Of a stretch of 32,680 nt of DNA, positions 4,665-31,951 are shown in pieces (position 1 is the first letter of the stretch; every line of letters begins with the position of its first letter). This DNA comes from Perkinsus olseni (lineage: Eukaryota), in contig JABANN010000400.1 in the NCBI GenBank assembly GCA_013115125.1, positions 1 through 32,680 of the forward strand, given 5' to 3'. Position numbers and translations under genes: made by a program. The notes below the pieces were generated by a model. It had not been told where the DNA came from, searched no databases, and worked only from the letters and a program-made list of their open reading frames with translations.

Positions 4665-5415
4665 CTCCTATCATAGAAGCCAATTATTTATTGATCTATT
4701 CTCTTTCCGTTGCCTTTTGTATTTACACCACTAGCTTAAGCTACCATACATCTCATCACTTGGTTTTTTCAAGACCAACCATTATCAATATTCTCTTTGT
4801 TTGTTGCGATACACCTTCTCCCTATGCAGTGTCACGGGGCTTATTAAGTTATAGAGGATAACGGAGCATTTAGATTGCCCTTGCGTTCAATTCGAACCTT
4901 TCACACTGTGTGTCAGTCACACACCGAGTCTCACTTCGACGTTGGGCGGGAACAAGTTTGCTGGACAGTGAAACCCTCCTTTTTTCCTGGTTCGGCAGCC
5001 GTTTCACGCGCGGGCGGATGCTGTATGACTGATGGCGATTATAGGCTGCATGCACTTTATGTGAGCGTATCTCCCCACCAGAGAAAAAAGGGTTTTAACG
5101 CCAAAAGAGACGTCATCATCAGTGGTAGCGGTATCCCAGGCTCTCACCACGACAAATGTGTTGAATGCGTTTGTCGTGGTGAGAGCCGTCGTGAGAGCCG
5201 TGGTGAGGGCTGATTGAAGGATTCATGATGGCAACCACAGAAATCGAGATAATCGGCCTCGTGGTCGGTGGTCCTTAGATTACCTCACGATGGCTATCAG
5301 GGCTCACGAATTAACGCAATGTCCCCATCTAAGCGAAGGTAGCAGAAAAGAGCGTCGGGCAATAGTACAGGTGAATGTTTGCAAATAATGGTCAATAAGT
5401 CTCTTCGTGTTCGTG

Positions 5416-8400: not shown

Positions 8401-11193
8401 AACCCATTCTATAATCATCTGTGACACCGGTACTTCTCACCAGCTTCTCGGCAGCACTCAGCACAACGCCAAGGGATAGGTCACTTATTATTGGGTAGTT
8501 GTCGTTACACCATGGGTGCCCCGGCCCAACCAGCTGGTAGTAACCATCAGAGCTTTCAGCGTTTGTGAGTGGTCGGAAGGGGCGCCAGCCAACGGCGGGT
8601 CTACACCATACCCACAGTTGACATAATGCTGCGGCGCGGACGTCGCTGGACACTCAACCATTGTTCAACTGGTAGCTTGTCAGATGTGATATTTTGCACA
8701 ACCCTCTCCGTAAAGCAATCGAATAGACGAGTTTTCAAAATAGGTTTCAGGACTAGCAGGGCAGTAGTGAGCCGAGAAGTTTGACTTGGGACTCCCAAGT
8801 TGGGAGGGCCTCAGCATTAGATACGGAATATCACGAGGATTTCGAAAAGTTTCTTCTTCAAACTCGCCCTGTGAGAGTTTTTGGTGGGACAGGCTGTATT
8901 CTGCAAGTTAACAGCCTGTGTGATAGTATATAACAATATTCAGACCAGACAAGTACCGTCTATGTGATGAGAACTTCTCATTGAGAAGTAATTCTTATCC
9001 GATCTGAATGCCATATCTGAATGCAGCTGAGATTTTTCCAGCTCAGCCTGAGCTGGAAAAATCGAGTGAAGGATCACAGGCCATGACAACCGATCTATAT
9101 AAGTACCTCAGTTGACTCAAATCGATCTCCCAATCTTTCCTACCGTACCCGCAAACGGTGATGTATTACCATTTCGATGTAGTTGTAGAGATCCCTAGTC
9201 TTGGTGGTCACGGAGTCCGTCTCGATAAAGTGCGTCACCGCGTCACTCGCAGCTGAGTAGGCCAGCTCCGCGTACTGCTTGTAGGGATGAAGCGCCTGCA
9301 TCTCCAGCAGACTTCGCGCGCCACGGAATAGACTGCCAATGGCGTCCCAGAGAAAGGCAAATTCAAGGGATATATTATAACCGATGTAGGCCGCCAGGAC
9401 AGTACCCAAGACAGAGAAAAGGATCATCACGCTGGTGGCGGAGATGAAATCCGCGTTGGACTTTATGAAATTGTTGCATGCTCTACCACACCATGACCAC
9501 ATCATCAAGAAGCCATCATAGGAGGCCGTGAAGATGCGCTGGCTGATACGCCGTAGTGCGGTATGGGAGCCTCCATCCTCCGCCACTGAGGTGGGGTCGT
9601 CGATGCTGTCAGGATCCGAGGGCGGCCCTTCTGATGATGACTCACAACTCGGTGACTCAGACGCCGCGACCTGAACCAGAACACTACCTGCTGATAGTCA
9701 ACAAGGCATCACCACACGAACCGGTAAATGAGTTCGTCCGCTGTATCGCCCACCGCTTCTACTACCCTTTAGGTACTTCACTTTCTCGTACCATTTTCAA
9801 CAATGACCCCGGGATCTTATTTTTATGGTGCCTTACTGATGATACCACGACTATCGCTCTATCGTATGATTTGCGGCTAATAATATCAATACTCTCACTG
9901 GTATCGTTTCTGGAGCTAACTAGAGATATAAATTAGTACTATCATAATTCTGACGTGGCCAGACGCCCGACTTTCCCAGAAGTCCATGTAATGCGATACC
10001 ACAACTCGACCACCACCTGCGCACTTCGAGGCCCTTCCCCTCACTACACTATTATCATCATCGGGCCGGTCTTCCCTGCCAGCTGGAGTGGTACTCCGTT
10101 TCCCTCCACTGGCCTTCCTAGACCTACTCCTCGACCGACTCCGCCGCGTACTACTACCGGCTGTACTGCTCCTCGTTCTCCTTCTACTTTTATGCAGATA
10201 CAAGAACACTTTCCCGAGACCACATAGCCATCGCACCACCAAGACGGACACGGCGATGATGGTCACGTATCGGAATATAGCGCTGTATATTGCTGGGAAG
10301 GCCCAAGCAAACTTCCAAAAATAAAGATATAATATTACCGCGCGCCACAAAATTCTGAAGTACAGACTGCTACCACCATCGTCCCTCGGCAGTAGTACAT
10401 AAACCAGACAGCGATACAACACAGTGGCCGCGTCCCTGGCTTGCCGAAGAGACATCTTGAGGATGGCGCGAGAAGGGCTCAGTGGGGCTTCGGCTCCCCC
10501 ACCTCTGCTCTGCATTAGGGAAGGTGCGGCGGTGGACTCCTCGTCCTATGAAGAAGCGCCGATGTACTGGCTAGAGGAATCTAATGCCCACGCACGGCTC
10601 AGATACGACTATCACAAACAGGCCTTCTTTGATACCAATTTTTTCGTAATTCATGGCCGATAAATTTCCCCCCAACAACACGAACGACGAGCTCCTACCT
10701 GAGCGAATTGCGCTGTTGCAGAGTGGTGGCCGTCACGATCCGTTGATGTCGCGTCATCCCTGTATACCAGCACCGACCCACTAGGCCTCGACCTCCGGCC
10801 AGAGCGCCACTCCTGCGGGCTGCGTACCGTAATTTGTGGTATGTGAAATAAATTCAGCAACGCACTCTTGATAACTTGCTTCGGCGGGAACAACAAAAGG
10901 TACGCCACAATAACCCAGAAGAGCGTCTGCAGGAAGGGATACAGCAGCACATAATTCAGCCCCAGCAAAGCAGTAACACCGATGCACAGTAGAATGACCA
11001 AGTACGCCCGCACCCACATCGAGGGCTGCGCTGAGGCCCTGCTCGACTCGTACACTACACGAGTAAGACGCCGTTCTAAGCGGACCTCGTGATCATAGAG
11101 GGCCTCCGTGAAGGCATGCACTAGCTTGACATCATCCTGATACCTCTCGCCATCAGGCCGCCCTGCATCATGAGTGATGGAAGGCCCAGACAT
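5416..11193 (-). CDS. Multi-pass membrane protein, TMEM245 / AI-2E transporter-like; multi-exon with a ~1.9 kb intervening insert
   Basis: N-terminal part LNYVLLYPFLQTLFWVIVAYLLLFPPKQ (10651-11193 ORF), further TM exons at 9916-10515 and 9140-9586, luminal exon ~6520-6990, C-terminal AVGLGVSWFGARGVILGPAIATV typical of AI-2E/TMEM245. Joining both halves into one gene is an inference. Confidence 0.65.
7601..7638. repeat. Two overlapping 22-bp scars, 8-mers GAGTCAAC and GTCAACAC
   Basis: GAGTCAA GTTGACTC AGTCAAC (7601-7622) and GTCAACA GTGTTGAC TCAACAC (7617-7638), both perfect. Confidence 0.9.
8785..8806. repeat. 22-bp excision-type scar, 8-mer CTTGGGAG
   Basis: CTTGGGA CTCCCAAG TTGGGAG, perfect. 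Confidence 0.9.
8967..8988. repeat. 22-bp excision-type scar, 8-mer ATGAGAAG
   Basis: ATGAGAA CTTCTCAT TGAGAAG, perfect. Confidence 0.9.
9031..9063. repeat. Perfect palindrome, 16-bp arms, 1-nt centre
   Basis: GATTTTTCCAGCTCAG C CTGAGCTGGAAAAATC. Confidence 0.95.
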
Positions 11194-11397
11194 GATGACC
11201 TCATAGGATACTGAAGCGATACCACTCTCTCCAAGCTGGAGACTTGCCCCTTAGTGACTTGATAACACAGAGCCGACTATCTATGATACTGATGGAGAAA
11301 GTCTGAACACTCTATGCAAACAGTCTTGAAAAACAACAACATCGACAACAGGGACCATCTTATAATACTACCACACATCTCACTATAAATTACTAGC

Positions 11398-12835
11398 TTA
11401 TAGCTTCTCACCGTGAGCACCATCTCCAGGGGCCACAGCAATGGTATCGCACTTGATACCACTAGCCTTCTCGTATTTCTCAGCAACCTGCTTACAGAAA
11501 GCGTCCACCTTGTCGGCCTCAACTAGGTTAATAGTGCAGCCACCGAAGCCACCGCCCATCAGTCGAGCGCCCAGGAACCCAGGACAGCTCTGGGCTTGGT
11601 CAAACATGATATCAAGCTCCTTGCAAGAGTTGCCGAAATCATCGCGACTAGAAACGTGAGAGTCATTCATGAGCTGACCGAACCTCTTCATGTCTTTTTT
11701 CGAGATAGCATCCATGGCCTCGGCAACACGAGTATTCTCACCTGAAGGTACACAGTAGAGCCGCGACCCTCCCTCCCATCAGCCCTACCAATAATGTGAT
11801 TGGCTCTCTTCCTATCATCCTCGGACAAAACTGACTTCTTCACGTCATAAGTCTTGGTATCGATATCCCTCAGGAAGGGCACGCCAAGGGCCTTGGCAGC
11901 ACCGAAGCAGCACTTCCTCAGCTCGTTGTATTTACCATCCACGAGTTGGTGGGGGGCATGGGTGTTGCATAGAACAAAACGGACATCACCTAAGAGCACA
12001 CTATTCAACAGAGACCATCACAGCACCAGGCTTACCCTGCAGAGGGACGTAATCACAGCTGTTATCACGGCAATCCAGATGGACCAGCTGACCGCTCTTG
12101 CCAAAGGCAGAGGTGTACTGATCCAAAATACCACATCCCATGCCGACAAAATTGTTCCTGAAATGGCGAGAATAGGACGCGTCTTCTCATCAGTTGTGAT
12201 ACTTACTCAGCACTCTTGCAAGCCAAAACGACATCAAGTAGCTTGGCCTTGTACAACTTGCTATCGGGGCCGTCCAACTCTCGGATGAGGTTGGCAGTAG
12301 CGAGCTCGATGGCAGCAGAGGAGGACACACCAGCACCTGATAATAGAACCACATTTCCCACACTTCAGTGAACAATAATGCCTACCAACGGGGACATTAG
12401 AGTAGATACATGCCTGGAAGGCAGGGACCTCGTAACCCGCCTTTCTCAGCTCAACGATGACGCCCTTCGAGTAGTTAGCCCAGGAGTTCTCCCCATCATA
12501 TTTGGTATCATCATCGAGATCAAACTCTACCACATTCTTGAACGCACTGCTGTGAAGGCGCACCTTGTTGTCGGGAGACTTGGCACCGACAACGACGGTG
12601 TAACGATCAATGGCAGCCGATAAGACAAAACCCTCATTATAGTCGGTATGATTACCGAGGATCTCAATACGACCTGATACGGCAGGCACGATAGTAACAA
12701 CAGAATTCAACACTCCACGCCAACTCTACCTGGAGCAGCGCCGAAGACTGTTGGCTTCGACCCAAATCTTTGCTGATAATCCTTAGCAGCGTCTACTATA
12801 AGGGAAGCAGCAGGAGTCTTGAGGGTACTGCTCAT
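11398..12835 (-). CDS. galK: Galactokinase (GHMP kinase); 6 exons 12835-12730, 12673-12386, 12336-12207, 12157-12036, 11989-11789, 11741-11398
   Basis: APGRIEILGNHTDYNEGFVL, NVPVGAGVSSSAA (GHMP ATP loop), AENNFVGMGCGILDQ, LDCR, GARLMGGGFGGCTINLV; five GT-AG introns of 46-56 nt. Confidence 0.95.
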
Positions 12836-13544
12836 TTGCTTCACAACGATAATAAAATCAACTACAAAACGATAATTCACTATGAACTCGCGCGCTCGCT
12901 CCTCAGTTACCATATTCAGGAGGCACATAAGCGTTCACGCTAGCGCCTTCAGCGAGATGGGGACATCCACTAGCATTACTTCACACAACACCCAACAATG
13001 AGGGATATCCAACCGACGAATGGTTAGCTGACGTCGCACAAGATTGAAAATCTAAATTTAACCAACCAGAAACTTGCACGCGGAGTTCCGTTAGAAATTG
13101 TGGAAAGACGAGGAGTTCATTAGGCGGCTTATCAGAAGTAATGACGGATTCAATTGCTCATGAGCCACCAGTAGCCGCACATCGCAGCTCTCTCACAACT
13201 CGCACGTAGCTGATGAAGATTTGTTATGAGTGATGATGGCGATGTTGTACAAAAGAGCATCCACAACCAAGATTGGGTTGACCGCACCACGCAGAAATTA
13301 TGGGAATAGCACATGTTGCTGTATGCTAACAGTAGAACTGAATGGCCTACAAATACAACGCTGTATGCGTAACTTCTCCGACTCACGGGATGTGGCTCTA
13401 GCGACACGAAAAAGTTCATAGCGCAGCTACGCCGGAACCCTCGCAAAATTGCGACACGATTAGACAAAGGCAATTACGCAGTGATTAATTACGGAGGATG
13501 CCAACATCACATGGCAGCTCGGGAGAGCTGAACTAACTACAACC

Positions 13545-13616
13545 GGCTGTGTGGTCTAGTGGTATGATTCTCGCTTAGGGTGCGAGAGGTCCCGAGTTCA
13601 ATTCTCGGCACAGCCC
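13545..13616 (+). tRNA. tRNA-Pro(AGG)
   Basis: Acceptor stem GGCTGTG/CACAGCC; D-arm TGGTCTAGTGGTATGA; anticodon arm CTCGC-TTAGGGT-GCGAG; T-arm CCGAG-TTCAATT-CTCGG; 72 nt, no intron. Confidence 0.97.
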
Positions 13617-13891
13617 TCCCTTTCATTACAGTAGCTCAGGCACACAATATCTTAGAGTTAGAGAAACTTGCATCTGCTCCTCATACTCCGTCCTAATGAC
13701 TTACAAATGTTCAACGACTCGATAAAAACGCGGCATACACTCTAAACTATCTCCTGGGTCACCAGTAACTGAAAGTAACTCACCCTCTTCATGATGAATT
13801 ATACATCCGGATGCAGACTGCTACTAGAAAAATTCCTATGCATTCACGTTCGGAATACAATCGATAAAGAGTAGCGGGAGAGCCCTATTAT

Positions 13892-14651
13892 TCAAGTCAC
13901 CTGGGAGTGCTCTTCCAGGGCATCACTCGAAGTATCCGTCCCAAATGGACACAACGCCATCATCGCGAACTTCCAATGTTGTACGCCGAAGGGTATGCCG
14001 ATGATAGTCACAAAACACACCAAACCCACTGGGAGAACAAAACAGAAGATGCCCGATGGTGACGATGATGTGGTGGCCCCTACATGCCATGTGATAGATG
14101 CATAGTACTAATCCGAGTGGTAACCAGAGGACGTTGCCGACGAGCCTCGTAGTACACTCACACGTGTCCACAGACTGCCGACGCAACACCGTCTTGCCAA
14201 ACGGCAGGAATATCTGACATCAACACCACTATTGCCCCCGAAGATCATAAAGGAGCATCCAGCTTTCATACCGTGTGAAAAGTAAACAAGTCTTCTACTA
14301 ACCCCCTCCTACCAGCCATCCAAGCTTAAAGCATTGCAGGCCGAATGGTATGCCAACTATGGTCACACAACATACTACACCTATCGCCACCCCTGAAAGA
14401 CTTTATTCATAACACGACTGCGTAGCTGCTGTCTTACACATCAGAAAGCTCTCCCAACCGAACAGAAAAGCCCACACTAAATTACACGCCCAGTCACCGC
14501 ACCCTCGCCCATCCACTATATGATACGTTCGTATCGTTTGAACCTGACCCATGTACTGCACGCTTCGATACTCACGACCCACCCGAGTGACAGTGTTAGG
14601 CGCATAGTAGGGATTTTGAGGTGGTGGAGGGGCCTGCACCTGGGGATACAT
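13892..14651 (-). CDS. YccF-like (inner membrane component domain x2) small membrane protein with Pro/Gln-rich N-terminus; multi-exon
   Basis: Two repeats: NLVWAFLFGW...CCVTIVGIPFGLQCFKL...LPFGK and GNVLWLPLG...CFVTIIGIPFGVQHWKFAMMALCPFG. Exact 3' end uncertain (TGA at 13892 if no further intron). Confidence 0.85.
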
Positions 14652-14827
14652 CCACTACAAATCAGTACAGCTGCTCGTCCGACACTTCCCCCGCACTAAG
14701 CTGGATTGATCGAACACAACCTTTTCGTTATCCCCGGTCAACACTGCGGAGAAAATCTTTTTCCTTCTTCTACTGCCGTCGTTGACTATGCGGTTATTGA
14801 CGTCTCCTCCTCCTCCTCCTCGCAGGA

Positions 14828-15401
14828 TTACGCAGCAGCACTATTGCTAGCAGCGTGCATCAAAGTAATGTTATCTCCCTTCAAGAGAATCCTGCCCACA
14901 GGCCTTCGAGTATCCTTCTTAGTGTTGACCTGATGAACAACCACAACATACTCAAGCGCACTCGAGGCCGTCAGTGCCGCGTCGCGATTTTATGCCACTA
15001 GCCCGTTTATAACCTCTTCGGCATCATCCAATACCACATTCATGTACTCATCAAAGCCCAGGATAACGCCCTCCATGCGAAGGTCCTTATGATCATATCT
15101 AAATACAATAATAATACACAAGGGGCTCTAACAGAAAGATGCCTTCGCGCCGCACAGCGAAGAAAGTAAAGAAGCGACCATAATCAACCGCAGAAGCGCT
15201 CAGAATTGTCGAGTTCCGCTAAGCGACGAGCCACCTTTTTAAACCCGTTATTACAACCATACAACAATCCTCGTCTTCTCGGTCAGATACCTGATAAAGT
15301 CCCCTCACTGCTTTACCAATGACGAATGGTGTATCGACCTACCTGAAGATGAGGTTGATGGGCATGGTCATGATCTTCTGCAACTTCCTTTTGGACATCA
15401 T
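14828..15401 (-). CDS. SNRPE: Small nuclear ribonucleoprotein SmE; 4 exons
   Basis: [83 protein letters not shown]: Sm1 and Sm2 motifs of SmE. Confidence 0.95.
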
Positions 15402-15741
15402 CTTTGCGGAGGAAAAGGTGGCAAAAGGAAATCCAGCTACTACAACAATTCAACGACCAATAAAACACCTTCCCATGTTCCTGTGAGATATGCCCTTCCC
15501 ATGAGATGTGGTTAGCTTCACCACACCTTCAAGGACGCTGAATGAGAAACATTACTCATTCCTCAAGCAATTTACTCTAGGCCCTCTTCCGTATGGCAGT
15601 TTCTCATCCTTCAACGACCAATGAAACAACCCGGTAGTTGTGTTGTCTCAACCAATTGTGCAACGGCGGTGTGAGTCGAGTATAACATAATAACCACATC
15701 TCCGAGGACGCTGGATGAGAATCACCCGAACAGAGAATTGG

Positions 15742-15845
15742 GGGTGTTCAAGAGACTGCCTCCTCTAAATGCCAGCAGTGCTCCCAGAATTGAATTCAAA
15801 GTGCGAAGAGGCTCTCGAAACTTTGGAGAGGCCTATTGAACACCC
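15742..15845. mobile_element. Short inverted-repeat-bounded element (possible MITE relic)
   Basis: GGGTGTTCAA (15742-15751) and TTGAACACCC (15836-15845) with imperfect inward pairing; no TSD seen. Confidence 0.3.
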
Positions 15846-16113
15846 GGAATAATTTACTCTCGGTTCCCTTCCTCGGGACAGCTTCCCTGGCGCCAACATC
15901 CAATCAAACAACCCCGGTTCGAAAAGAGTAGTAGTTTGCACGAGTCTAGTGCGCGAGGGGCGAATCTTAACTGTCCGTCCCGGATTCTAATACGACCGAA
16001 GACGAGGGAATGACGATTCCGTAGGCCTACTCGATGATTCAACGACACAAATCGATCAGCGCATGAACAATCGCGCGCGCCCAAAATTCCTCAACCATCA
16101 ACAGCATCTCCCG

Positions 16114-16197
16114 CAGTGCTGCAAATTTTTGGAAAAGAGTCGAAAACATCAATTTCAAGAATTTTTGAGACTCTATTCAAAATTTTGGGCAGCACTG
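16114..16197. mobile_element. 84-bp fold-back element with CAGTGCTGC termini (possible hAT/Tc1-type MITE relic)
   Basis: Left CAGTGCTGCAAATTTTTGGAAAAGAGTCGAAAA versus right (reverse complement) CAGTGCTGCCCAAAATTTTGAATAGAGTCTCAAAA; a third related copy at ~15775-15830; no TSD seen. Confidence 0.4.
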
Positions 16198-16417
16198 TCT
16201 TGGAAGAGTTGGTGCTTCCCTAGCAGATCTAACACAATACCGTCAATAATAACGATATGATATGACAGAGAACAACTTATGCTGATTCTGATTCTGCTCA
16301 TGACCAGCGATGACGACTGGCAAAAAGGAAAATGACTGGCAGTATTTACAGTGTTTAAAACGTTATAATAGAAGATATGTTTCTTATGTGATACAATGAT
16401 GAGCACCATCTCCGGAG

Positions 16418-19400
16418 TTAGTCATCATCTGGGGAGTTGAGGCTCCACACCTCCACGTCTTGTATGACAAAATCTTCGCTTGATGCTAGTGGACCCGAAT
16501 TATATGTTAGACAATGTCCAGTTGAACCCTGAAGAAGAAACTCGTACCACACTTTCACCAACTCCCAGACATGAAATACCAACGCCAACCAGAGCGGCGA
16601 GAATTCCGTTAATCTCTCTTCGCGTGCTAGCCGTTTCAAAATAGTATCACTTACAAGGACCTAGCTGTCGAATTGGCTAACAATAGTTTCGCTACCATAA
16701 CCTGTCCCAGGTCACAAGGATTTTTATTCTACGCATAAGATTGTCAAATACGATGACGATGTTGATGATACGGCAACCATCGAGTCCAAGTAGTACAAAG
16801 ACGATGCTATTACCCTGAGCCAGGAATCGTAGATGCAGATGGCGCTCTGGCCAGATTTCCCTCCACCCCCAATCACGAGCCGACGCTCATCGCCGTACTG
16901 AAGAGGACGATGCGGAAAAGTCGCGCGCCACGAAATTGCGGGGGTGCTACCTGGAAAAACTCGTTCTTGCTGCTCCAAGGATATAATGTTATATCCCCTC
17001 TGTCATAGCCATGCTTACCAAAGGTGAAGACCCAGCTTTCACCTGAAATACCGTCACTGCGCCACGAAATTATCAACTGCTGCAGCTGAAGAGCCCAACA
17101 TACTGCCTCCCTAAATTTCAGGAGCGCTCCCAGGATTGGATTTAACGTGGGAAAGACCACCCTGGGAGCGCCCATGAATCTCAGAAGAGGCACTCTTACC
17201 AACACCAAAATCGTTTGTCGACAGATTTATTATGATACTAACTACTGTACGACGATTCGCCAATTTGAAAGTCTACTATGATCAGGCTAGAATCCTATAC
17301 CATCCAACCCGAACAACCAGAAAGTTGAAATTCCGGAGAGGTCTGTTGAACATTAGGAGCCCTGCATACCATTGCCGCAGAACTTTCCCGATTTCCTCCA
17401 CTGCCCCATACACAGGGCGCCGAACACTGTCCCCTCGGTGTCTTTTATAAGCAGAATAGACGGGCAGGGCATCCGCTCCATGTGCCTTGTCGAAAGGACA
17501 ACACATTAGTATGAAAGCGTCACTGCGCCACGAAATTACCTGTAGAAATTGTCCAGAGAGATGCCGTGCACCTTGGGCGAGTATGATAGAGTCCATTGCT
17601 GAAAAGGAAAAACATCACTAAGAGCAGGAAGCCCTCAGAATGGTTACCGTGAACCGCAACATAATAGGGAGATGGTCCGACAGTGTAGCCGCAGCCCTCC
17701 TTGTCAACAACCAAGGGTCCTTCGCATCCAAGTGACTGCGAAGGGAAAAGATACTGCTGCATGATCATCGCAATGTAAAGCGATAAAATGAGCGGCCTAG
17801 GTAGTAGTGAATGAGGATGTGACGTAAAAACCGACGTTATTTTCTCTTCGAGAATATTAATGTTGGAACAGCGTGAGATTGAGACTACCGTCATCCGATA
17901 CCACGATCAACCTCTATACTGCTCTGCAGAGCACTGCAGACACTTATATATGCGGCACGGCGAGAAGAGCCTCAGCACGCTAAGTTGTGATACGTATCAC
18001 CCGATAATGAAGAGCATCAATACCAATAGCGTCTTTGTGTATTCTGCAGGATTCCTCTGTTATTAGTATCAACGCTGCCCTCGTCCCACGCTATGATCAT
18101 TCTAGACACTCTCATGATACTACTTTTGTATATACTGCAGAGCACTTTCATCATCCACTGGTATCGTCAGCAGGGGGGCGGCCGAGTCCTGATCCTCGCC
18201 CTCCTCGGATGACGATGAGCCTTGGATCTCGCTGATAGCCACTACGTCAACCTACAAACCATCTCTTCACACAAAGCACTCACAGCGGCAGCGATCACTA
18301 CTCGGGACGGCGACGGAACCATGCCCGGTTTTCCATGATCCACCTGGCCGCCACCACTGCTGGTCTGACCAGTCGTATTTGAAACACTCTTATCTGCAGA
18401 AAAGGCGATTTGCGTACGAGCGAGCAGGAGTCGCGGCAGGCCCACCGTCAGTCAAGCCCATCTTCGCTAGCTCCTCAACAACAGCACTGCAGCTGAACGG
18501 CACTTCTGTGAGAGTGCTGATGTCTGTACAACCTCCTTTCACTGAGCAATTGAGAGGATGATGATCACTGAGACGGCCCCTCGCCGAAACAATAGCAATG
18601 ATAATACTCAAGTTTAATTCCCCGACATGCAAATTACGATACGTTGCAAGTCGCAATCGCCCAGAGAATTTTCAGCTTCATGTCCGCCGCCCCACCGACT
18701 GAGTGAAGGATCGAGCGAGTCGGGCGACCCCTCACCGGAATGATAACCGCGATGATACTTGAGCGTCCTTCACAGAACTCAGTCGAAAAAGCATCTCAAA
18801 AATCACACAGTTCACGTTCATGGGTTGAACATACCGTTCGCGTTAAGTTCACGTTAACGTCAACGTTAAGTAAGTTGACGTTGTGCATGACAGCACTGCC
18901 GCTGCGGATATAACCTTACACTACTGTAGTTCCCCTCGACAAAACCCCTCTACGCGTCACAGGGGATTTACCACGAGTGTACGCAGTTGACCGTCATTTA
19001 CCATTCTAATAGATACTATTCCTATAAGTTCTGCTATTGACGAGATTGCAGAGGAAAGAGACCCCGCAATCCAGGCTCGAGTCCCCCTTCAACAGCAGTA
19101 GTTTCCCTTAAGCGTCCTTGGTAATTCTGCAAACCGGAAGCCCCATTCTCTCAGTATTACCTCTTCTCTCCTCAGCAATATCATCAATAATATCAATCAG
19201 GCTATGGGCCACCTTATACAGCTTCTCACGACTAGGAAACTGATCGTGAGAAAATTAATCCCAACCCAAGCCGCAAAACCTACTTGAAAAACGACGACAT
19301 TGTCGTCCGACAGAGGTACTTGTTGTTGCTGTGAAGGGCTGCCCGTGGAGGCATCGCTCAACACGGAACCCACAGATCCAACTCTGTGCTTGCGACGGCC

Positions 19401-19885
19401 ATGCAGCGTGCTCAACTAAAACGAGGCACTCAACAGAAGAAACGAGAGCGCGACCTCACCTGCAGTTGCAGGAAATGGGCGGCGTACTCATCGGGGTCGG
19501 TCTCGCCGTAGTGACCGAACGTCCCTACGCGACGATGCCATCGAACTGGCTATGCAGTAGTGATCGCTACCCTACCTTGCGGGACCGGTTCCCCTTCATA
19601 CTCGCTGGTCGGCACAGTAACAGCCCCACATTCCACCAAGTCTCTCAGATCTATGTAGGCCTAGAAGAGCACGAGCGATATACTCCAATGGCAGAGCGGC
19701 TGTGCTCTCACCTGATAAGCTCCCATACCCTCAGTCCGCACACGTTCAAACCGAGGGTCCGGCTCGAAGTGTAACGTGGAGGCACTTTCTGATATCGTCA
19801 ACAACCCCGGAGCCTGAGCACCACAATTGTCAACAAAACTAACGGAATAAAAACACTGTATCAACATCGGAAAGCTAGCGCACAT
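16418..19885 (-). CDS. OXR1/NCOA7-like TLDc-domain protein; multi-exon
   Basis: TLDc: WTLSYSPKVHGISLDNFYR|HMERMPCPSILLIKDTEGTVFGA...FCGNG|ESWVFTF...YPWSSKNEFFQ|YGD...LVIGGG...AICIYDSWLR|G..GHCLTYNSGPL...FVIQDVEVW. N-terminal GLLTISE...FEPDP...EGMGAYQ resembles the OXR1 GRAM-like part. Start and middle exons uncertain. Confidence 0.8.
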
Positions 19886-20714
19886 CTACGAGAGTTATTC
19901 GGTTCTTAACCAATATCTATAACAAAAACCTTATACTTGAGTTTAACCCGTAATACCTGAATTGGCGTTTTCCGCCAGGTGGAAGACGCGTAAATGGCGA
20001 TGCAAAATGAAGTCAAATCACTCAGAGAAATACGCACGTGAACACCATTCCGAGAATAACGCATTGAGCATTTCGCGAGAGAGCTTTTTTTCGCGAAAAG
20101 GCGGTTTTATTTTGCAAAAAAAGCAGTTTTCTCCGTGAAAAACAACTCGAGCATTTGACGAATATATACTTATAGTCGTGAATGAGGCGAAATCTAGCCG
20201 CCACCACCTTGACATCTGGTGTACAGAACCATGCATGTTCTCTCATAAAAATATATGGTGACGTGAGCTCCGTGGTATCGCCACTGCCACAACGAGGACC
20301 TGATGACGAGGGTAACAACCAGCTTGCTCCTTCCTACAGTCGCCGTGGCCGCTATTACTCCTCTCCTGGACGAGGACTGCTTCGGGAGTCCCCACTTGAA
20401 CAGCTTCATCTGTTGCCATTACACGTAATCGGTAATTATGATGATGTCAAAACGAATTGAAAAAACTTGAGAAAGATTTTCGAATCGGTAGGGATACTAC
20501 TGCCTCTCCAGAATGGGAGAAGCGTACAAGAAGCATTACCAAAATATCCCAGGTATCGCTCATAAGAAGCGATAAACCGAAGATTCCGGATAACTCAACC
20601 CGGATAAAACTGAAAGGAATGATCTGTAACAACAACAACAGCAGCAAAACCTGAAATCCACAAAAACGAAAGTTCTGAATTGCCCATCTTTTCATCGTCA
20701 AGCTGCGTGCACAA

Positions 20715-21540
20715 TCATGACATGGTAATCCTCAGTATGCCTCTCGCTTCCCCCGACTTCCTGTCGACGCCCTGCATAGAGGTGAGTATCTTCTGTAGGT
20801 CAATCCACACTGGTTCAGTGTATGGCCATGGATCCAGCAGCAACACACTCGCTGTCTCCTTATGATACCCACCTATCGGGGCGAAGTGCCCTCCCCAGGG
20901 AACTTGCCCGGCCTCCGACATATCATAATTAAGAATAAAAAAATCTTTGCTGTGCGCAAAGAGTCGCTCCAACTCTGCTGCACTTTGCGGTCTCACAATG
21001 GCTGTGTCCCATCCCATCATACGGCAACTGTCGCACAATTGAGCTAGCGTTAGTCCCTCTTTCAGGATGGTATCTTTGCGCACCGCGAAGAATTCCATCT
21101 GCAGCATCTCCTCATCGCTCAGAATCTTCCCACTCATCGACGCCAGGACCATCGCCACCGACGTAACCCCGCAACTAGCGTGAGTTTGCTGTCGTCTATA
21201 AAACTTGATACCAGTTGGGCTACACCCTGCCAGTCTTTTCAGTCCCTCCTTCGACCGTAATAAACATAAGCCCTCCTCGTAACTGATGGATGATATCACA
21301 AAGTAATACCGAGATATAACACACACGTAACGGCTCAACTAATATCAGTGAAGAGTGTGAATCTCCTTCAAGGCAACAGCGACATGCAAGAACGCTCACT
21401 TTCGGTAAACTGCCAGCGCTTCCTGCTCGGACATCCTCTTTCTTTTCACAAGCCCATGAACACATCTGTGTCGTTGTTCGACGGGAAACACCTCCGGGAG
21501 GACCTGCTGTAGACCTTGAATGTCGTCCGGAGTCATCCAT
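20715..21540 (-). CDS. Short phytochelatin-synthase-like (papain-fold) protein
   Basis: QQTHASCGVTSVAMVL (Gln oxyanion + Cys), GLTLAQL, GGHFAPIGGYH (His), VLLLDP (Asp), MQGVDRKSGEARG. The core lies in one ORF (20715-21338); N-terminal exon structure unresolved. Confidence 0.8.
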
Positions 21541-22993
21541 AGAACAAAAATCTACATTGTGCAACTAATGTAGTAAACGACCTTCGTCTCATCCTGTAAT
21601 AACGTATCCCACTGAGGCCAGCGAAGCCCTTATTTCGATCGCAGTCAACTCTGTTCCACTCGGAACCAGTACAGCAGGCCGAGCAACCGACCGCCGGTCG
21701 GTTGAACCGAGCACGCTGAGAGTCCGGGAGACTCGTCACACGTCCCCCTTAGACAATGTCTAATAGACATCAGCTCGCTATAGCCTAACCGGGAACGTTC
21801 TGAATAATCCTTCGCCATACCACCACTGGGGCTATCCAGTCCCCAAGTGTTCCCGACAGCGCCGACCTTCTGTGGACTCAGTAACGATATGCTCCCCAAC
21901 GCCCTTGCCACGCAGCATTTCTCCAGTCGACGGCACACCATTCGAAGACGTCAGAACACTGACCAAAAAGGGTTCTGGCTGCTCTCACAGCACAGCTGGA
22001 AGCACGAACCAAACAGCAGCCTCGTGACGGCTGAGAAGAACACGAGGAGCCGCCGTGATCTCAGAGGCCTTCTACCACACTCCTGTTCGAACGAAACATC
22101 AAAGACAGTGCAAGGAAAGCCTTCCCTACGCAGTCAGGAGCGACAAGAGAAAAAGAGGATGGACGACCGTCCCGAAGTGAGTAAATTATAAGTGTGATTT
22201 TATTACAGCCGATGCCTATCCCACGCAGAGCACGCTATCGACATCGATGTTCCAGGAACCCACATTACAAAGGAGGCCGAGATTATCTCGCAACTTACCA
22301 CCGAAAGGCCGCGGAGAATCACCCGAAACATCAACGCTGAGGGCAAAGCGAGCAACGGTAATAGTATAATACGACGGCTGAGCACCACTACACAAGTGCA
22401 GCGGGGCTGAGCCAAAGTGACAGAGAAAGAGCAGCTCAATTAAGCAGCCACTGGCGCAAATACTGTAAAACTGGCATCAGTACAGCCACCAAGAATAGAA
22501 CCAAGGACCTTCCGGTTCAAAGCATAGTGGAGTTGAACCATCCACGCCTCCACCAAACTTCCACTGGCGACAACACCGTGCACAGATGCAAGGGTAGCAT
22601 CAGAAATGGCGGACCCTATGAGAGTCTACCTCGTCTAGTTGTAGATGTGCGCAATCAGTGGCTACTAACAGACCATCCCTCTCGTTGTTCTGACAGAGCA
22701 GATCAGCACAACAGAAAAGAACATCATTGTGGACGAGTAGAGGCCTACGCCTCCACCCGACCTATGACCAGTAAGGACTAATACGACAACAACGACGGTC
22801 ACCGAGTGATCGTCGTGTTAGACCAACCTCTGTGAGCAGTGTAATGACAACAGTAGCAATAATAATCATCAATATACCCACAGCACACAGAATAATTATC
22901 CACCATCACTTTACCATATTACAAACATTCGGGCCTCTCGAAAAAACGAGCCAACTGAAACGATGGACATAAGCCTCACCAAGCGTCCAGCAA

Positions 22994-24583
22994 CTATGCG
23001 TCATCAACCCCGCTTCCAGCCGACGTACCTATCACAATCGATCACCAAGGCGAGCGCTACTTACACCCTCCCAACCCTCACTTGCATCACTATGAAGGCG
23101 TTGCCTAATGCCATTGCCTTGTTTGTTGCCTCTAGCACTTCGGCCGGGTAAAGGCTGTTTGACGACGACGTTGTTGCTCTTCATCGTTCTGGCCTCCTCA
23201 GGACACATAACGTAAGTTTTGTGAGACTCTTCAGCGACAATGCGCGGTAGTACGGAGCTTAGCTTTGACAGCTGCTTCGACAAATCGTCCACCGAGGGAA
23301 CCTGGAGGATCCGTGCCATCAATCAACCCCACTCTCATAGTACTGATTTCATCTTAACGCATTTGACGTAGCTTCTCGGTAAGAGCCTCGACAGCAGTCT
23401 TGCCGGGTTCAAGTCGCATCTACTGTTTCCTACCAGTACCTACACCAACTGGACGAGTGCGCCGCAAAATACCGTGTAAAATTTCTCACCAGACTAACAT
23501 GCCCGCCATCGGTACGCTCACGCCGGCACTTCAAGGCACGAGCCATTGAACGGGCTTTACTAGCCAACCCGATGGTACTCTTAACTTCCACCCTTGGGTT
23601 AATACCATCAATTAGGGGTAGAATGCCAGAGGAGGATCTACGAAAAAACACGACCAGTTCTTGCTACAGCCAATCGGGCAATGATTCGGCCATTATCCGC
23701 CTCAGCCACGATTTAAAATCTCGACTTAGCATCATTCCGAGGGTTTGCAATTCACTAAGAGTGTACTTACAAAATTGCCGGAGGACAATCTTTGAAAAAC
23801 AAGATCAGATCGTTCGCAGTGAACGGTTCAATCGCCACGCCAAGCTATGAGTATTAATCAAATTGCAATCACCCGCAGTCAAAACGCAGAACAGCTCTTC
23901 AACAGTATGCTTACAAAATTTCCGATAGATTGACTAAGCCTGGCCACCTCTCCTACCTCCGGGCACACTTATAAACCCAGGCCGGATCGGCAGCAGTTAC
24001 GATATGGACCTTGCTGCCCTTACTCATATCCACTGCTTCTCGAAGAACTCTCTCAGCAGCCTCTAAGCAGGACCTGGCACCAGCATATTCTATAACAGTG
24101 GCGTACCCATTCAGCCACTAGCGAATCGCTCTCCGAGCCCGAATTTTTATCTCAACAACTAATCCCTCAAGACCTTACGAGAATCTACAGAAATATTTTA
24201 AGGGAAAGTTTGATGCACTGGATATAGTAAATTTTGTCCGCAGTGATCCCAAATATCCTTTAGTCACTCCCGTACTATGTTCAAATTTCTGTGTAAATAT
24301 ATCACGAGAAAAAAGTCGCAAACAATCGGAGAACTGATTCGAGCGGCACTTACAAAAAAGCAGCCTCAGCCTTGTCTGCCTCCGCCTCATCGAGAGTGCT
24401 GTGCTCAAGGAAGGCTGTAGTAGGAAATAAGGTATCATCCCAGTCGAATATGAATAGGGATGGTCGCCCCCGTATAGGGGGCTCAATACTGCCCTCCTCC
24501 GCGCCATCCTCACAACAGCACAACGAATCACTGTGACCACCAACAGGGGCACCAGTCACAGCTGATGATGACGCTGACATCAT
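22994..24583 (-). CDS. HAD-like protein of the DWDDT type (uncharacterised protist family); multi-exon
   Basis: First exon PSLFIFDWDDTLFPT (HAD motif I DxD); later exons LFCVLTAG, SKARSMARAL, YVKCVKMK|VPSVDDLSKQLSKLSSVLPRIV. The stop near 22994 is inferred. Confidence 0.65.
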
Positions 24584-24685
24584 GAAAGAAAGAGGCCCAA
24601 CTAGCAGAGAACAGTATCATAATCCCGTATCATCAGAGATAACACAACGCGACAGCGTCGAGACTATCATGTATCATGAGGACCA

Positions 24686-27600
24686 TCATCCTAGGAGTAA
24701 ACTCCGTCTCCTCTTGTTGGACTTAGAGCCCTCAGAAACCTGTGAATGCCTGTGACTAAGACGAGCCCCACTTAAGCTCTTGCATTTTTAGCTGCTGATA
24801 CTCGAGCGCTTCAGACTCTAGGGACGTCCCGTAGAAAACGCTCTGCCCCATTGAGTAGTCGAGCTACCATTAGTAGTCCACTATTAGTGATCTGCAGTAG
24901 TTTTATTTCGCCGCACAAGTTTGCCGAAGTTTTGACTAATTCGTCGAATTCAGACAGCGCCAAGTCACTATGATGCATCCAGTACGCCCACACCGACCGA
25001 AGCAACCAGCACCGCCTGACTACGTCCAGCGTTGTGTCGATTTCACGAAGTTCCTGGAAGGCCGGTATCAAGAGTTGAGGATTGGACTCGGCCAGTTCAG
25101 TAAACTTCTCCATCGATATCTTAGCTCCAACCGGCAGCTTCACTTCTCCATAAAGTACCTCAGCTCGCCGTTCTAACCATGCTTCAGATATGTCACCTAA
25201 ATTGCCGCCGTTGAAATCGACAGTGACTGCAAGGCCGTACGTGGTCCGGGTTCGGGTACTGCTACTCCTCAACCGGGAAAAATATCACGACAAACACATA
25301 AAATTGACATTTTGCGGCCCAGCGTTCAACATGCGTCATCAGCCCAGCGCACAACGTGTACTACCAGGCGAGTTGGCCCTGAGAATTTTCAACATCTCAG
25401 CCTTGTCAATGAAGCCACTGCCGTCCTCATCGAACATCATGAAGGCAAACTTCAACTTGTCCTTCGGAGGTGCATCGGTATGGGTGGATAACCCAACTAA
25501 AAGGATAACCATAGACACGAGTATTGACAAAAGTCGAAAAACAGCTATGTCATACCAGCTAGCTAGACAGAATAGCAGTATGTCCAGCCAACTTAGGAAC
25601 CATCCCACGACGATCTTTTCGTGTGGATTAAACGCTATAAAGTTTTCGCATCAATCTGATGCTCTCAAACGTGTCCATATTTCTGCTACTGAATTCGCGC
25701 CTGTAGCTAACCTACACCAAAGCACCGCTCAGGCCCAAGAAACTGGACATCCTCGAGTGTAAAACAAGCGAGCTTCGTGATGACATCCGGAAATCACGCT
25801 CGCCGTGAAAAATCCACGTCATACCAGTATGCATCGAGCCCCCTAACTAACCTATGAATTCCTTAACATCTATTTCCCCCGATCCATCAGTATCGAATAT
25901 GGCAAACAGCCGCCGAAGCATCGGAGTATCCTCCTTCAGAAGTGCCTACTGTTGTCGCTACGTGGTGTGATGAATATCCTACTGCAACACCTTCCTGAAT
26001 TCCTCGTAGTCTATCATTCCCGAGCCATCCTTATCGATCTCCTGAAACTTGTGAAATATCTTTTTGATCTGCGATGGCTTGACGCTCGACCCAGCCTCGC
26101 TCTCGGTGAAGGCAGTAAGGATATCACGCCTGGAATCTCGCGTTAAACCGCCGACAAATCGGGCTGAAGAGAGACCACTATCATCTCGGATAATGCTCCA
26201 GGATAATTCAACAATCACCTTCTTTGACTTGATTTTCCCTCTGCTCTACAGCACGCTCGAACTCCACTTCGAAGTCGGGATTATACCCGTACCTATCAAC
26301 GCCGTCATTCGCGGGTCATTTCAGGTTACTGAAAAATCCCGAACGGAAAAGTTCATGTGCATAAGTGGTAGTAGAATCAGCGGTAGGAGTAGTCCTAGTC
26401 TCAGGAGTCCTCTAAACGGTTGGTTGAAGTCGGTTAAGGAAGATTTTGAGGATCGTGCTGGGGTATGGAGGCGCGTTCCGAAGGATGATATGAATAGAGC
26501 CCCATGGCACAAATTCACCCTTATTCGAGGTGCGCACGTCCCCTAGATGGATATAAGCGCCTATTGACTGAGTAGCGTAGCGGGCCGATCAAAATAAGCC
26601 TAAACTACGAGCAAGCCCCAGTTATCCTAGTGATAGTATCGGAGCAATACGGCATCGTTACGCTGGTATCTTGATCGTTACTTAGCATGATAATCCCACA
26701 GCGACATCCTCTGCTTCGTCCTCTCTTCCAGTTCCACATTGCGGAATAGTAATGACGGCTTCAAAAACAACTCTGCGAACTCTCGGTAACTGATAAGTCG
26801 GGTAGCACATTCCCAAGGAAGGTCACCGGGCGAGCGCTACTATGAGCCAAAACTCGCTCGCCCAAGCGCATGACAAAAAGCGCGCGCCCTAAATCGTCAG
26901 ACAGCACTTAACGTAGCCGCTGCCGTTATTATCGACCATCCTGATCATCTCTTGTATCTCTTCGGTAGTGACTGCTTCTCCCGACAGAGCTAGTACTCGC
27001 CGTAACTGCGAAAAGCACTAATGATGAGTGATTAATGGTAGGAATTGATTTCTCAGAAACAGACCACCACTTCTGTCCTACAATTTGACGCTGGCACGAC
27101 GCCCAGCCAGTGGCTGGCAGCCACTGTGATGCTCACGGCTACGCTATCGAGCGGAATAAGTCGGTCTAATTGGCATGATTGATGACAACCCTGGGAAGTA
27201 CCACGCAGAGATTCGTAGACATAATTTCCATTAATCTGCGATTTTACTAAGCAGATGCTGACTGGCCTTTGCCCCTAACAGTGAACACCGGTAAAAGTCT
27301 AACTAGGCCAGAACCGGCGTTGGGCTACTTGAACTCACACGCGAACTGTCCCCTCCGCCTATGAACAACATAGACAGTGCTTCACGGTAACTCACGTCAG
27401 ATTCATCAAGATAGCCGTTGCCGTCGGAGTCAATACTCCTGAATGCTTCAGCGATCTAAAGTGAACCCGATCACATCAATCGCCGCAGGGCTGTTCTCGT
27501 TACCTGTTCATTGGTGAAAAGATTCTCTTGTATCCCCGGTATCAGGAAGGCGTCCAGAACGGAAGGATCTCCAGCTCGACCGTTGCGCTGAACAGACTCA

Positions 27601-28799: not shown

Positions 28800-30510
28800 T
28801 ACAGCCAACGCACCCGAGTTACCGTCATGAACACAGTGGAAACACTTGGAGGTAACAAACGCAAGACGGTTGCGGAGATTGGCGCCGGCTATTAGGCGCC
28901 GTTAATCCTTCCGCAGCCTCGTTGGGAACCTTCTACAATGCAATTTCGGTAGTAGAACTCTATAATGAGAATACACTGTAGGTGAAAGATTAGCCGGGAG
29001 GGCAGCAGCCGATGCTCGGCACCTCTTCCGATGAAAGCGAAGGCGGAGCAACTCTCGAGCTGCCGGATGCGCTCGAAATCTCCAGGCCATGATAAGTAAG
29101 CGCCTCTACCAGCTGTGGATCAAGAGCGGACAAAGGGGTCATTATGAAGGAACATGCCGCCTGTGATTGGTTTTAAGCCTGAGCCTTACAGTGAGAATCA
29201 ATAGCTTCGCTGACAACTTGATCCATTCCGCCGCAGCAGTCCCTTGGGCTACTTTCCCTATAAGTTTACCCGTGAGTGGGCTACGATTACGGCTCTGGGA
29301 ACAACTTCGATGAGAATATCCCAAGCAGGTCCTGAGCGAGCCACTTGCAAGGAGGTTAATTCGCCTAGAAACGACGCTTCGCGGAAATATTGAGGAATGA
29401 GACATCCGCAATTCTGTTGTTTCTGTCCACCATTCCCCGCCTCCAGTGACTGGAGGCTCCAGACCTTCAGACCAGAAGTAAGTTAGGCCGTAAGTTACGG
29501 CGCCGTTGATCGCTTCTCCTCTTGTCCTTCCGCCAGTCGATTTCAAGCCAGTCATTCTCTTCTGCCTCAGACAAGCCAGACAATCCCATTCTGTCAGGGA
29601 AAACCACCTTGGATGCATCAAGCGACGAATCGAATGAGGAGTTCAGTTCTACACCAGCAATCCCAGACGTAGCCGCAGTTTCAACTTTTCAGCCATAAAC
29701 CCTCCTAGGGAGCGATGAACCTCTTCAACCTGGAAATGCGGCGAATGAGCAGTAGCAGACGTCGCTAGCGAGGAAGGAATGGGCCACTAGTAGTGGTCAT
29801 GATGGCAGGATGACTGAACGTGAGGCTTTACAATTACGAACACACGTCGCCTAAGTGATCAGGCCCACCAACCCTGCTTGGAAAAAATTCTTCGTCAACG
29901 TCTTCCGAAGACCGACTGAGGGACGGAACTCTTCTAGCGACATTGTCCGACAATGATTGCCGCGGCGGAGGTATGACAATGCCGCGGCTGTCGCTGCGAC
30001 AACAAGCGGTAGATGACGAGGCATTCTCCGATCTGATTTTGAGGGCCGGCCGGAACATCTTCTCTCGGCTCGGCCTAAAGCGTAGTCCGATTTGAGTGGT
30101 CCGAAAACCGCCATCTACTAAACGCTGTTAGCCTGGATCCAAGCTGCGTATATCTCCGATATGAACGCTTCGCCAATCAAACTCAGAATGGCAAACGCCG
30201 ATGCCAAGTTGACCCGTTGAGGCAGACCTTCTAAACTGACTCCCACCTCACTTTCAAGTCTCTAGAATACCGCTCCTCTGGCCTCTCTTTCTCCGCAGCA
30301 CAGCGATCTATCTCCCATTTGAGCATATCCGTGTATTTCATCGAACCCTCCCCCTGGCAAGCCCGCTGTAATTCAGAAGGCATCCTGTCGAAACGTGTCC
30401 GAAATTTCAGTACTTCGCTAATCGACGCATTTCCTATTGATAACCCAGAAGGCCCAGCAGGCAAACGGCGAGAAGCTGTGTATCGGATACATTGTGCCCA
30501 AAAACAGCCG
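28800..30510 (-). mobile_element. Heavily decayed retroelement-like (gag/pol-like) relic
   Basis: Intronless, stop- and frameshift-ridden peptide fragments (YTDMLKWEIDR...RDLKVRWESV; ENDWLEIDWRKDKRR; VVSRRINLL); no intact RT/IN motif or LTRs seen. Confidence 0.3.
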
Positions 30511-30596
30511 GTCTAGTTCATAACTCATAGCTTATGATTCATGAGCAGCCTGCGCAGTGCGTAGTACTCACCCCTCACTCATCATCTGGGGTGATA

Positions 30597-30618
30597 CCCC
30601 AGGCCCTGGGGCCCAGGG
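30597..30618. repeat. 22-bp excision-type scar, 8-mer CCCCAGGG
   Basis: CCCCAGG CCCTGGGG CCCAGGG, perfect. Confidence 0.88.
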
Positions 30619-30704
30619 GTATTTCAAATCTGTGACATTATAAATGAGCTTGTACTGATTGCACAGTAATTCACTGACGGCGAGCAGGCTCTTCATATTA
30701 TGAA

Positions 30705-30753
30705 GGGAACTAGGGACTACTTTATGAAGTTCATAAAGTAGTCCCTAGTTCCC
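30705..30753. repeat. Perfect palindrome, 24-bp arms, 1-nt centre
   Basis: GGGAACTAGGGACTACTTTATGAA G TTCATAAAGTAGTCCCTAGTTCCC. Confidence 0.95.
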
Positions 30754-31265
30754 CGTTCTTGTATCTTCCGTTCGCAGTCGTGATGAATGCCCTTGAGGTA
30801 CGCAACTGAAGTGTGCAGCATGTCGCATGAACTATTACAGACTTGAGAGAACTCATTCATGCTTGTGGAGACATCGCGGAGACACTAGCCTATGCCAATT
30901 CGGAATGGGAACAGTGCCCAGTGGCCACCACTGGTGGACCAAGAGTCATGCGAACACAGATGCAGGTTTACCTTCTCTTCTTGCTGATCAGTCTTTTGGA
31001 TCGATTGATCGTGGCTCCGAGAAATTCTCAATTGGCTCCTCCTATAGCAACCTCATAATGCTTTGATACGTTCCCAGCTTCCGTGCCGTCCACCTAAGAC
31101 TCAGCTAAGCGTCGAGCTGAATCGTACAGCTGATTTTCTCCCAGGGTGCGAGAGTAAGTGCGTCGGACTGTCAGATTTGGACTCACTTGCGTAGCAATCT
31201 TGTTCCTCAGCCGCATCGCTATTCTCACAAGCAGTCTTAAAACGCTTCTTTCGGGAATGGAGGGT

Positions 31266-31287
31266 CTCTCACAGTGAGAGTCTCACT
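31266..31287. repeat. 22-bp excision-type scar, 8-mer CTCTCACT
   Basis: CTCTCAC AGTGAGAG TCTCACT, perfect. Confidence 0.9.
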
Positions 31288-31308
31288 CCCATCTTTTCAA
31301 CTTGAAAA

Positions 31309-31330
31309 CTACAAAGTTTGTAGTACAAAA
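31309..31330. repeat. 22-bp excision-type scar, 8-mer CTACAAAC
   Basis: CTACAAA GTTTGTAG TACAAAa (A-run expanded before the final C). Confidence 0.75.
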
Positions 31331-31496
31331 ACATACGACATAAAATGAATATGTCCAACATCGTCGGCCGAGATACACCATTACCTCGTTCTAGAAAATC
31401 CTTATAAGATTATCCTTTCCTTTGGATATTGTAGCGAACTAGCTTACATTAGCTAAATTGCATTAAATGCAAGCCAGGAAGGTAGCTATATCAGCC

Positions 31497-31524
31497 TGCT
31501 AGTCACTAGCAGTAGCAGCTAGTG
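31497..31524. repeat. Excision-type scar, 8-mer TGCTAGTG, with a 6-nt internal duplication
   Basis: TGCTAGT CACTAGCA gtagca GCTAGTG. Confidence 0.7.
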
Positions 31525-31951
31525 GGATCTCCTATTGTTCCGATAATATTCTGGCGGAATAATTTCGCAGAAGATACTACCCGAGGCCAGCGGCTGAACT
31601 CTACTCTGCCGAACTGAGGGTTTCCCAGAGTTTCTGTCGTCGTAACTGTGTAACCTTGTCGCCAGACGGAGCCGAAGTTCTTCTGTTATTGTCTCGCCAC
31701 GAGACTCTCGCGCATTTTGGCTCCCTCAGCCTTATCCTGCTCATCTGCGTAGCGAGCCATTTGTTCCTGACCACATGCCGAGAAACGCGTTCGTGGTGAC
31801 TTGACACGTACAATCGACGATCAAGCGGCTCGAGCGGCTCAAGCAGCTCGGCTTCCTTTTGCTCAGAGAAAATTGCTCCAATTATTTTATCACTTCTCGT
31901 AGCCTCGGAGCGTATCTCATCGGCAAGCTCATCATTTCTCATCGGCATTTC

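Follow-up and report, generated by a model that had tools for sequence, protein, structure and literature searches.

A double palindrome in Perkinsus olseni read as the probable repair scar of a hAT-type transposon

How did two palindromes come to lie end to end over 63 bases (30691-30753) of a 32.7-kb stretch of Perkinsus olseni DNA, the whole of which is called the window below? We favor the reading, at a probability of about three in four, that they are the repair scar of an excised hAT-type cut-and-paste transposon, in which both chromosomal ends left behind by the element had been sealed as hairpins, opened at different distances and joined. The argument proceeds from the letters of the scar to the allele of a divergent strain, from there to the many related scars in the window, and finally to the course of the excision and its relation to hairpin-forming systems already described.

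The double palindrome and the allele of a divergent strain

The smaller palindrome, of 7+1+7 bases (30691-30705), has as its center T 30698, found in a palindrome scan of the window. The larger, of 24+1+24 bases (30705-30753), is perfect: a repeat finder returned two fully complementary (100%) arms of 24 nt, 30705-30728 and 30730-30753, separated by a single nt. When the window was shuffled 200 times under a first-order Markov model, odd palindromes (those with a one-base center) with arms of at least 12 did not occur at all.

Both palindromes are built on one 8-mer, CTTCATAA, referred to as N. On the plus strand the stretch begins with bases 1-7 of the left target copy (CTTCATA, 30691-30697, base 8 being absent) and continues with a left palindromic tract (P tract) at 30698-30705, TTATGAAG, the reverse complement of target bases 1-8. 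Its last base, the G at 30705, is common to both palindromes, the coordinates of which overlap by this one base, and represents a 1-nt microhomology at the join. The right P tract (30706-30729) is composed of GGAACTAGGGACTACT (30706-30721) and a second copy of TTATGAAG (30722-30729), that is, of inverted target bases 1-8 plus 16 right-flank bases. Bases 2-8 of the right target copy (TTCATAA, 30730-30736) and the right flank AGTAGTCCCTAGTTCCC (30737-30753), template for the long inverted copy, complete the stretch. Expressed in terms of N, with rc for reverse complement, the left half reads N1-7 + rc(N1-8) and the right half rc(N1-8 + 16 flank bases) + N2-8 + flank. An earlier note on this DNA had given the same letters and segments, all of which match the sequence exactly, including the single G that joins the two ends. 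Both hairpins are separately readable at this site because their tracts were joined end to end rather than overlapped.

Public sequencing runs were queried with 29700-31700, and contigs of four of them (X1, X2, X6 and X7) were aligned with a likeness floor of 85%. Two studies account for the three samples X1, X2 and X6; the window may itself derive from X1 and X2, which makes X6 the sole clearly separate sample among them. Each contains the whole stretch in one contig, with 0, 0 and 1 differences, respectively (T>C at 30670 in X6). Since the palindrome is unchanged in all three, an assembly error is unlikely.

The fourth run, X7, carries the same organism label as the others, yet it comes from a divergent strain that is about 96% alike (the lineages differ at about 3.5% of sites); over its longest aligned pieces, of 476, 481 and 896 letters, it differs at 16, 19 and 32 letters, respectively. 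One of its contigs aligns with 30216-30691 (476 nt, 16 of them differing) and resumes at 30730, the first base of the right target copy, so that 38 bases with the right P tract are skipped. At this joint 77 letters lie on the shorter side and six (TTCATA) fit both sides. The X7 allele is thus ...CAGGCT CTTCATAA AGTAGTCCC..., with a single 8-mer and without the 38 extra bases. Exactly this wording had been predicted in the earlier note for the orthologous allele, and it is read letter for letter across the joint 30691->30730. The empty allele is represented by one contig of modest depth (539 nt, depth 7.1), and contigs show the presence of a sequence, not its absence.

With the empty allele at hand, the bases at the two centers can be assigned. 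T 30698 is the complement of target base 8 (A), and G 30729 is the complement of target base 1 (C). The earlier proposal that the stretch consists of two hairpin-derived ends is supported by this complement at both centers and by the empty allele itself. The probable polarity of the 38-base change rests on two lineages only, and a slippage loss of the 38 bases in X7 between the TTCATA repeats would lead to an identical empty allele.

Such a loss is what one would have to assume if the palindrome were an old or functional hairpin, regulatory or structural, that had been deleted in X7 between the TTCATA repeats. The 6-nt repeat flanks the 38 bases and slippage could remove them; moreover, the single-stranded DNA fold of the stretch is very stable (−26.4 kcal/mol versus −5.25 ± 2.16 kcal/mol in 200 shuffles, none of which was as good; z = −9.8). 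However, the hairpin is not conserved in X7, the only divergent lineage compared, and a search of Rfam at the gathering threshold gave no match at the palindrome (the only match in the window is a tRNA). The 24 arm pairs have 0 mismatches against the local flank, although the lineages differ at about 3.5% of sites, and dozens of unrelated sequences in the window share the geometry. We therefore regard an old or functional hairpin as extremely improbable.

Companion scars in the window and in the divergent strain

If the stretch is an excision scar with two hairpin-derived ends, regular scars of the same origin are needed as companions, and these are present far above chance. The window contains 45 odd palindromes with arms of at least 7 where about 2.0 are expected, and 2 even ones versus about 1.85. 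Arm lengths do not decay but are concentrated at 7, with 29 cases, and 8, with 11, and the distance between neighboring centers (arms of at least 6) is 7 in 15 cases, every other distance up to 30 being found at most twice. Underlying these figures is a 22-mer of the form N1-7 + rc(N1-8) + N2-8, of which the window holds 12 exact copies (about 1e-4 expected) and 6 with one mismatch.

These 18 regular scars start at 1654, 2015, 3319, 3573, 7238, 7601, 7617, 8785, 8967, 21749, 27103, 29941, 30597, 31266, 31309, 31691, 31952 and 32398. They are concentrated at 1.6-3.6 kb, 7.2-9.0 kb and 29.9-32.4 kb, with none between 9.1 and 21.7 kb, and none of the 18 lies inside an ORF with a Pfam match. Two regular scars adjoin at 7601-7638, with four centers (7608, 7615, 7624 and 7631), which suggests repeated events at one spot.

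A general-form scan was also made, in which a repeated 6-mer encloses a middle tract of m bases whose two ends must be the required complements. For m = 8 there were 15 matches versus 0.83 expected, and for each of the other values between 2 and 40 there were 0 to 4; the present locus is the sole match at m = 32. Short footprints with a middle tract of 2-6 nt were not clearly enriched (6 versus about 2.9 expected).

Two further scars are irregular like the one at 30691-30753. The second (9025-9063) consists of GCTGAG (N1-6) followed by a 16+1+16 palindrome; the 6-mer recurs 15 nt upstream of the center, and the center C together with the right arm defines N = GCTGAGCT. In the third (31497-31524), with N = TGCTAGTG, the ends meet without sharing the 8-nt overlap, and the order is N1-7, a left P tract of 9 nt (reaching one base into the left flank), a right P tract of 5 nt, and N2-8. 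The P tracts thus measure 8 and 24-25 nt at 30691-30753, 0 and 16-17 nt at 9025-9063, and 9 and 5 nt at 31497-31524. They vary, according to the model, because the hairpins were opened at variable distances.

A two-step origin of the double palindrome, in which a regular 22-nt scar would have been hit later by an event in its middle 8-mer TTATGAAG, was considered and rejected, because both copies of TTATGAAG are intact and not complemented at their inner ends and because the inverted copy of the right flank runs on through the 16 bases that separate them.

For 14 odd palindromes with arms of 7-10 (centers at 2712, 7985, 8056, 8150, 8252, 8278, 11890, 19300, 21694, 29448, 29494, 29948, 31301 and 31465), no exact second copy of the target was found within 80 nt. 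By chance, only about 2 odd palindromes would be expected across the entire window, far fewer than these. The palindrome centered at 29948 is the one-mismatch 22-mer starting at 29941; the others perhaps represent scars that are one-sided or have decayed. No single 8-mer could be fitted to the palindromes at 21684-21710 and 29439-29462.

From the 18 regular and the 3 irregular scars, 21 targets can be deduced. T at position 2 or A at position 7 was found in 21 of the 42 positions (background 0.25; binomial P = 5e-4), a bias to be read with the small sample of 21 sites in mind. The present site CTTCATAA has both T2 and A7. At the outer positions, C1 or G8 occurs in 18 of 42.

The geometry and the target bias bear on a second way of obtaining an inverted flank, namely fold-back or snap-back synthesis, in which the template is switched during replication or repair without a covalent hairpin being formed. 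The inserted bases are entirely local sequence, as a template switch would have it, and polymerase-theta end joining yields templated inverted insertions. Snap-back priming, however, depends on a loop and on a paired 3' end and would retain the original base at the turn, whereas here the arms abut a single base that at both centers is complemented relative to the empty allele. The fixed 8-bp unit and the T2/A7 bias have no basis in a template-switch model, and even-centered palindromes are not enriched. A template switch is therefore very unlikely to have made the scar.

A footprint of the MULE or Transib/RAG type was tried as a candidate and rejected. It would have even hairpins and a duplication of 9-10 bp or 5 bp, Transib making 5-bp duplications, while even palindromes in the window are at background level and center spacings other than 7 are seen at most twice each.

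The comparison with X7 extends to the companion scars. X7 omits 14 bases at 30598 and 14 at 31267, and these omissions correspond to two of the 22-mers of the window, both exact matches: 30597-30618 with N = CCCCAGGG and 31266-31287 with N = CTCTCACT. Conversely, X7 has 21 additional bases behind 29928 (site 29921-29928), the first 14 of which turn GACGGAAC of the window into a private 22-nt scar. The remaining 7 inserted bases belong to a 5+1+5 palindrome. The only other multi-base row in the indel table of X7 is an omission of 8 bases at 31146. Four of the five multi-base differences between X7 and the window in 2 kb (the indel-table rows plus the 38-base joint) are thus such scars, a count that excludes two further X7 joints, one skipping 131 bases (31030 to 31162) and one stepping back by 70 (31225 to 31156). 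For the 22-mer at 31309 no X7 difference is listed, although a missing row does not prove identity. As far as two aligned lineages can tell, scar formation is ongoing in both, since each has private scars.

The 131-base segment (31031-31161) is skipped in one X7 contig and kept in another, with no target duplication evident; part of it (31131-31154) is 83% like part of a tRNA-Pro gene at 13545-13616. The X7 contig that returns by 70 bases would represent a tandem duplication in X7 that is absent from the window. At about 30556 two X7 contigs stop in a 20-letter loose end, which is an 8+1+8 palindrome also absent from the window.

The search for an element and the meaning of the scars

No element with terminal inverted repeats between exact 8-bp direct repeats was found in the 32.7-kb window, and Pfam transposase families gave no match among its 78 stop-to-stop ORFs of at least 85 aa (a further 162 ORFs, of 58-84 aa, lie below this length). 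Long-range repeats within the window are limited to short chance-like pairs and a tRNA-like fragment. An occupied allele, with the element in the site, was not found in the four runs aligned. The loose end of an X7 contig at 30075 was tried as a possible element end and discarded, as its sequence is similar to that of the window itself and appears to be diverged DNA; further X7 loose ends, at 30208, 31156 and 31252, were weighed in the same way. Because no element or transposase was found, the former presence of a transposon at 30691-30753 is something that we infer.

The window has few long ORFs and one tRNA. Pfam matches above the cut-off were obtained in four ORF groups (galactokinase together with the C-terminal GHMP kinase domain, phytochelatin synthase, and EF-hand), and there is a weak match to PI-PLC-X; all of these are domains of host type. 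The phytochelatin-synthase-like ORF lies on the minus strand (20715-21338), and 91% of its length aligns with a Perkinsus olseni protein at 92% identity; on the strength of this one match the window is taken to be nuclear DNA of the genus or a near relative. Throughout 10000-26000 the GC skew is negative (about −0.04 to −0.2) and the AT skew positive, consistent with most genes being on the minus strand. Other features of the window are a long C-rich tract at 49-125, in which runs of C are interrupted by GTTTT and single G, and, at 5139-5210, a perfect inverted repeat of 18 nt around a 13-nt loop, behind which its right arm recurs twice more as a partial direct copy; this arrangement is unlike that of the one-base-center scars.

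From Perkinsus marinus, Dada and Merlin-related elements have been reported (PMC3706591, PMC8101967), and integration of foreign DNA at transposable-element sites has also been described (PMC7200600). The portions of the literature on Perkinsus transposable elements that were covered make no mention of hAT.

The outcome of the search raises the question whether an element was involved at all. A domesticated hAT-like nuclease or another, unknown enzyme could introduce staggered breaks with hairpins at CTnnnnAG-like sites, and the scars would then record a lineage-specific mutational process. The very high scar density (18 regular scars in 32.7 kb), the large share of scars among the multi-base indels between X7 and the window (at least 4 of 5 in 2 kb), and the failure to find an element, a transposase or an occupied allele in the window or the four runs all agree with such an activity. 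What it does not readily yield is the duplication of target bases 2-7 that flanks every scar and that needs a staggered 8-bp insertion followed by gap repair; an integrated element explains the duplication, and a simple break does not provide it. In addition, a window of 32.7 kb covers far too little of the genome to argue against elements outside it. We consider an element-free nuclease unlikely, and return to the excised hAT-type transposon as the preferred source of the scar.

The scar fits a hAT footprint in its 8-bp duplication, its one-base centers, the complement rule and the T2/A7 target. The duplication is kept as N1-7 on the left and N2-8 on the right, is a single copy in X7, and is based on the only unit, 8 bp, that is enriched in the window as a whole. 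The one-base-center geometry of the hairpins is likewise borne out by the window, where odd palindromes are enriched and even ones are at background.

Scars of this kind are known; what is new is the instance, a natural scar with an empty allele in a sister lineage, in a perkinsid. Within the portions covered of the literature on Perkinsus palindromes, on Perkinsus hAT elements and on genome-wide hAT palindromic footprints, no such scars were found described, and the local density of scars and the dominance of the 22-nt form appear to be unreported in the literature searched. The empty allele of the sister lineage confirms the two-hairpin reading and supports the interpretation of the nearby 22-nt scars as excision scars.

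A more far-reaching proposal is offered tentatively, and we regard it as more doubtful than probable: such scars could be the main class of multi-base insertions in this Perkinsus genome (about one per 2 kb), made by an extraordinarily active hairpin-forming transposon or by a domesticated or unknown hairpin nuclease, with repair nearly always proceeding via annealing of long 3' overhangs and not via classical tip-opening end joining. If true, they would form a lineage-specific mutational signature that records how a protist repairs hairpin-capped breaks. Should the density hold genome-wide, the hit-and-run of transposons would be, besides their insertion, a major source of small intergenic insertions, and the spectrum of the scars, with its long inverted tracts, annealing over 8 nt and scarcity of short P tracts, would give a sequence-only view of double-strand-break repair. 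The organism, in which double-strand-break repair has been little studied, belongs to a lineage of oyster and clam parasites.

Proposed course of excision and comparison with known systems

In Hermes the nick in the flank strand falls one base outside the element, and the 3'-OH thus generated attacks the other strand at the element end. The tip of the resulting flank hairpin contains one unpaired base from the opposite strand. When such a hairpin is opened 3' of its tip, a 3' overhang is formed, and fill-in puts the complement of the bordering base at both centers. The Hermes-type nick and fill-in agree with the published description of Ac/Ds footprints, which is discussed below.

Applied to the present locus, an element would have inserted at the 8-mer CTTCATAA and thereby duplicated it. 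Upon excision the transposase would have nicked the DNA one base into each flank, and the chromosomal ends would have been sealed as covalent hairpins, the left one ending in bases 1-7 plus the complement of base 8, the right one being its mirror image. Host nucleases would then have opened the hairpins 3' of the tip, at a distance of about 8 nt on the left and of 24-25 nt on the right, leaving 3' overhangs of inverted flank sequence. The left overhang would have been 8 nt long (7 nt if the shared G is assigned to the right tract) and the right one 24-25 nt. The tips of the overhangs would have paired via one G:C rather than via the 8-nt complementarity at the overhang bases, and gap filling would have fixed a net insertion of 38 bp. 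In the usual outcome, overhangs of at least 8 nt would anneal via their inverted 8-mers and the flaps would be trimmed, which would give the 22-nt scar. The opening distances (8 and 24-25 nt) are estimates read from the product only, and the opening enzymes and the order of the steps are likewise putative.

Hairpins on the flanks are also formed in V(D)J coding joints and in the excision of Transib and of the MULE Muta1 (PMC5499845). The present scar resembles these in that covalent flank hairpins, opened by the host and processed by end joining, can leave palindromic additions. It is unlike Muta1 and Transib in that only odd-centered palindromes and the 8-bp unit are enriched in the window. 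Muta1 fits less well because its hairpin is even (43+43 nt) and its excision mostly precise, more than 90% of the excisions in yeast being so (PMC5499845, PMC5225508).

Hermes generates 8-bp duplications and has the preferred target 5'-nTnnnnAn-3' (PMC10368747, PMC2803484). The present locus is like Hermes and hobo in the 8-bp duplication and in T2 and A7 at CTTCATAA. It is unlike Hermes at the outer positions, where C1/G8 is favored here (18 of 42); among the Hermes sites tabulated, the first base is G in 9 of 16, A in 5 and C in 2, and the last is often C or T (PMC2803484). A Hermes-like element or transposase was not found in the window.

A close published parallel is that of Ac/Ds, a member of the hAT superfamily, the P-nucleotide footprints of which have been described in plants, in S. 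cerevisiae and in Candida albicans (PMC5873905). Their hallmark is palindromes centered on the complement of the base bordering the element; in S. cerevisiae the arms are up to 20 nt long, and arms of at least 3 nt were present in 66 of 140 footprints (PMC5873905). The scar at 30691-30753 shares with these footprints the 8-bp target duplication on both sides, the inverted repeats centered on the complement base, a join with little or no microhomology, and long arms, which are known from Ac/Ds as well. It differs from those studied with Ac/Ds in being a natural, fixed scar and not an experimental revertant, and in its arm of 24 nt; furthermore, the element itself was not seen here. Plants and Candida have mostly short footprints, with a middle tract of 2-6 nt, and these are not clearly enriched in this window. 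Unlike in Candida, where short P tracts of 1-3 nt dominate, the common product in this genome is the full inverted 8-mer, that is, the 22-nt scar.
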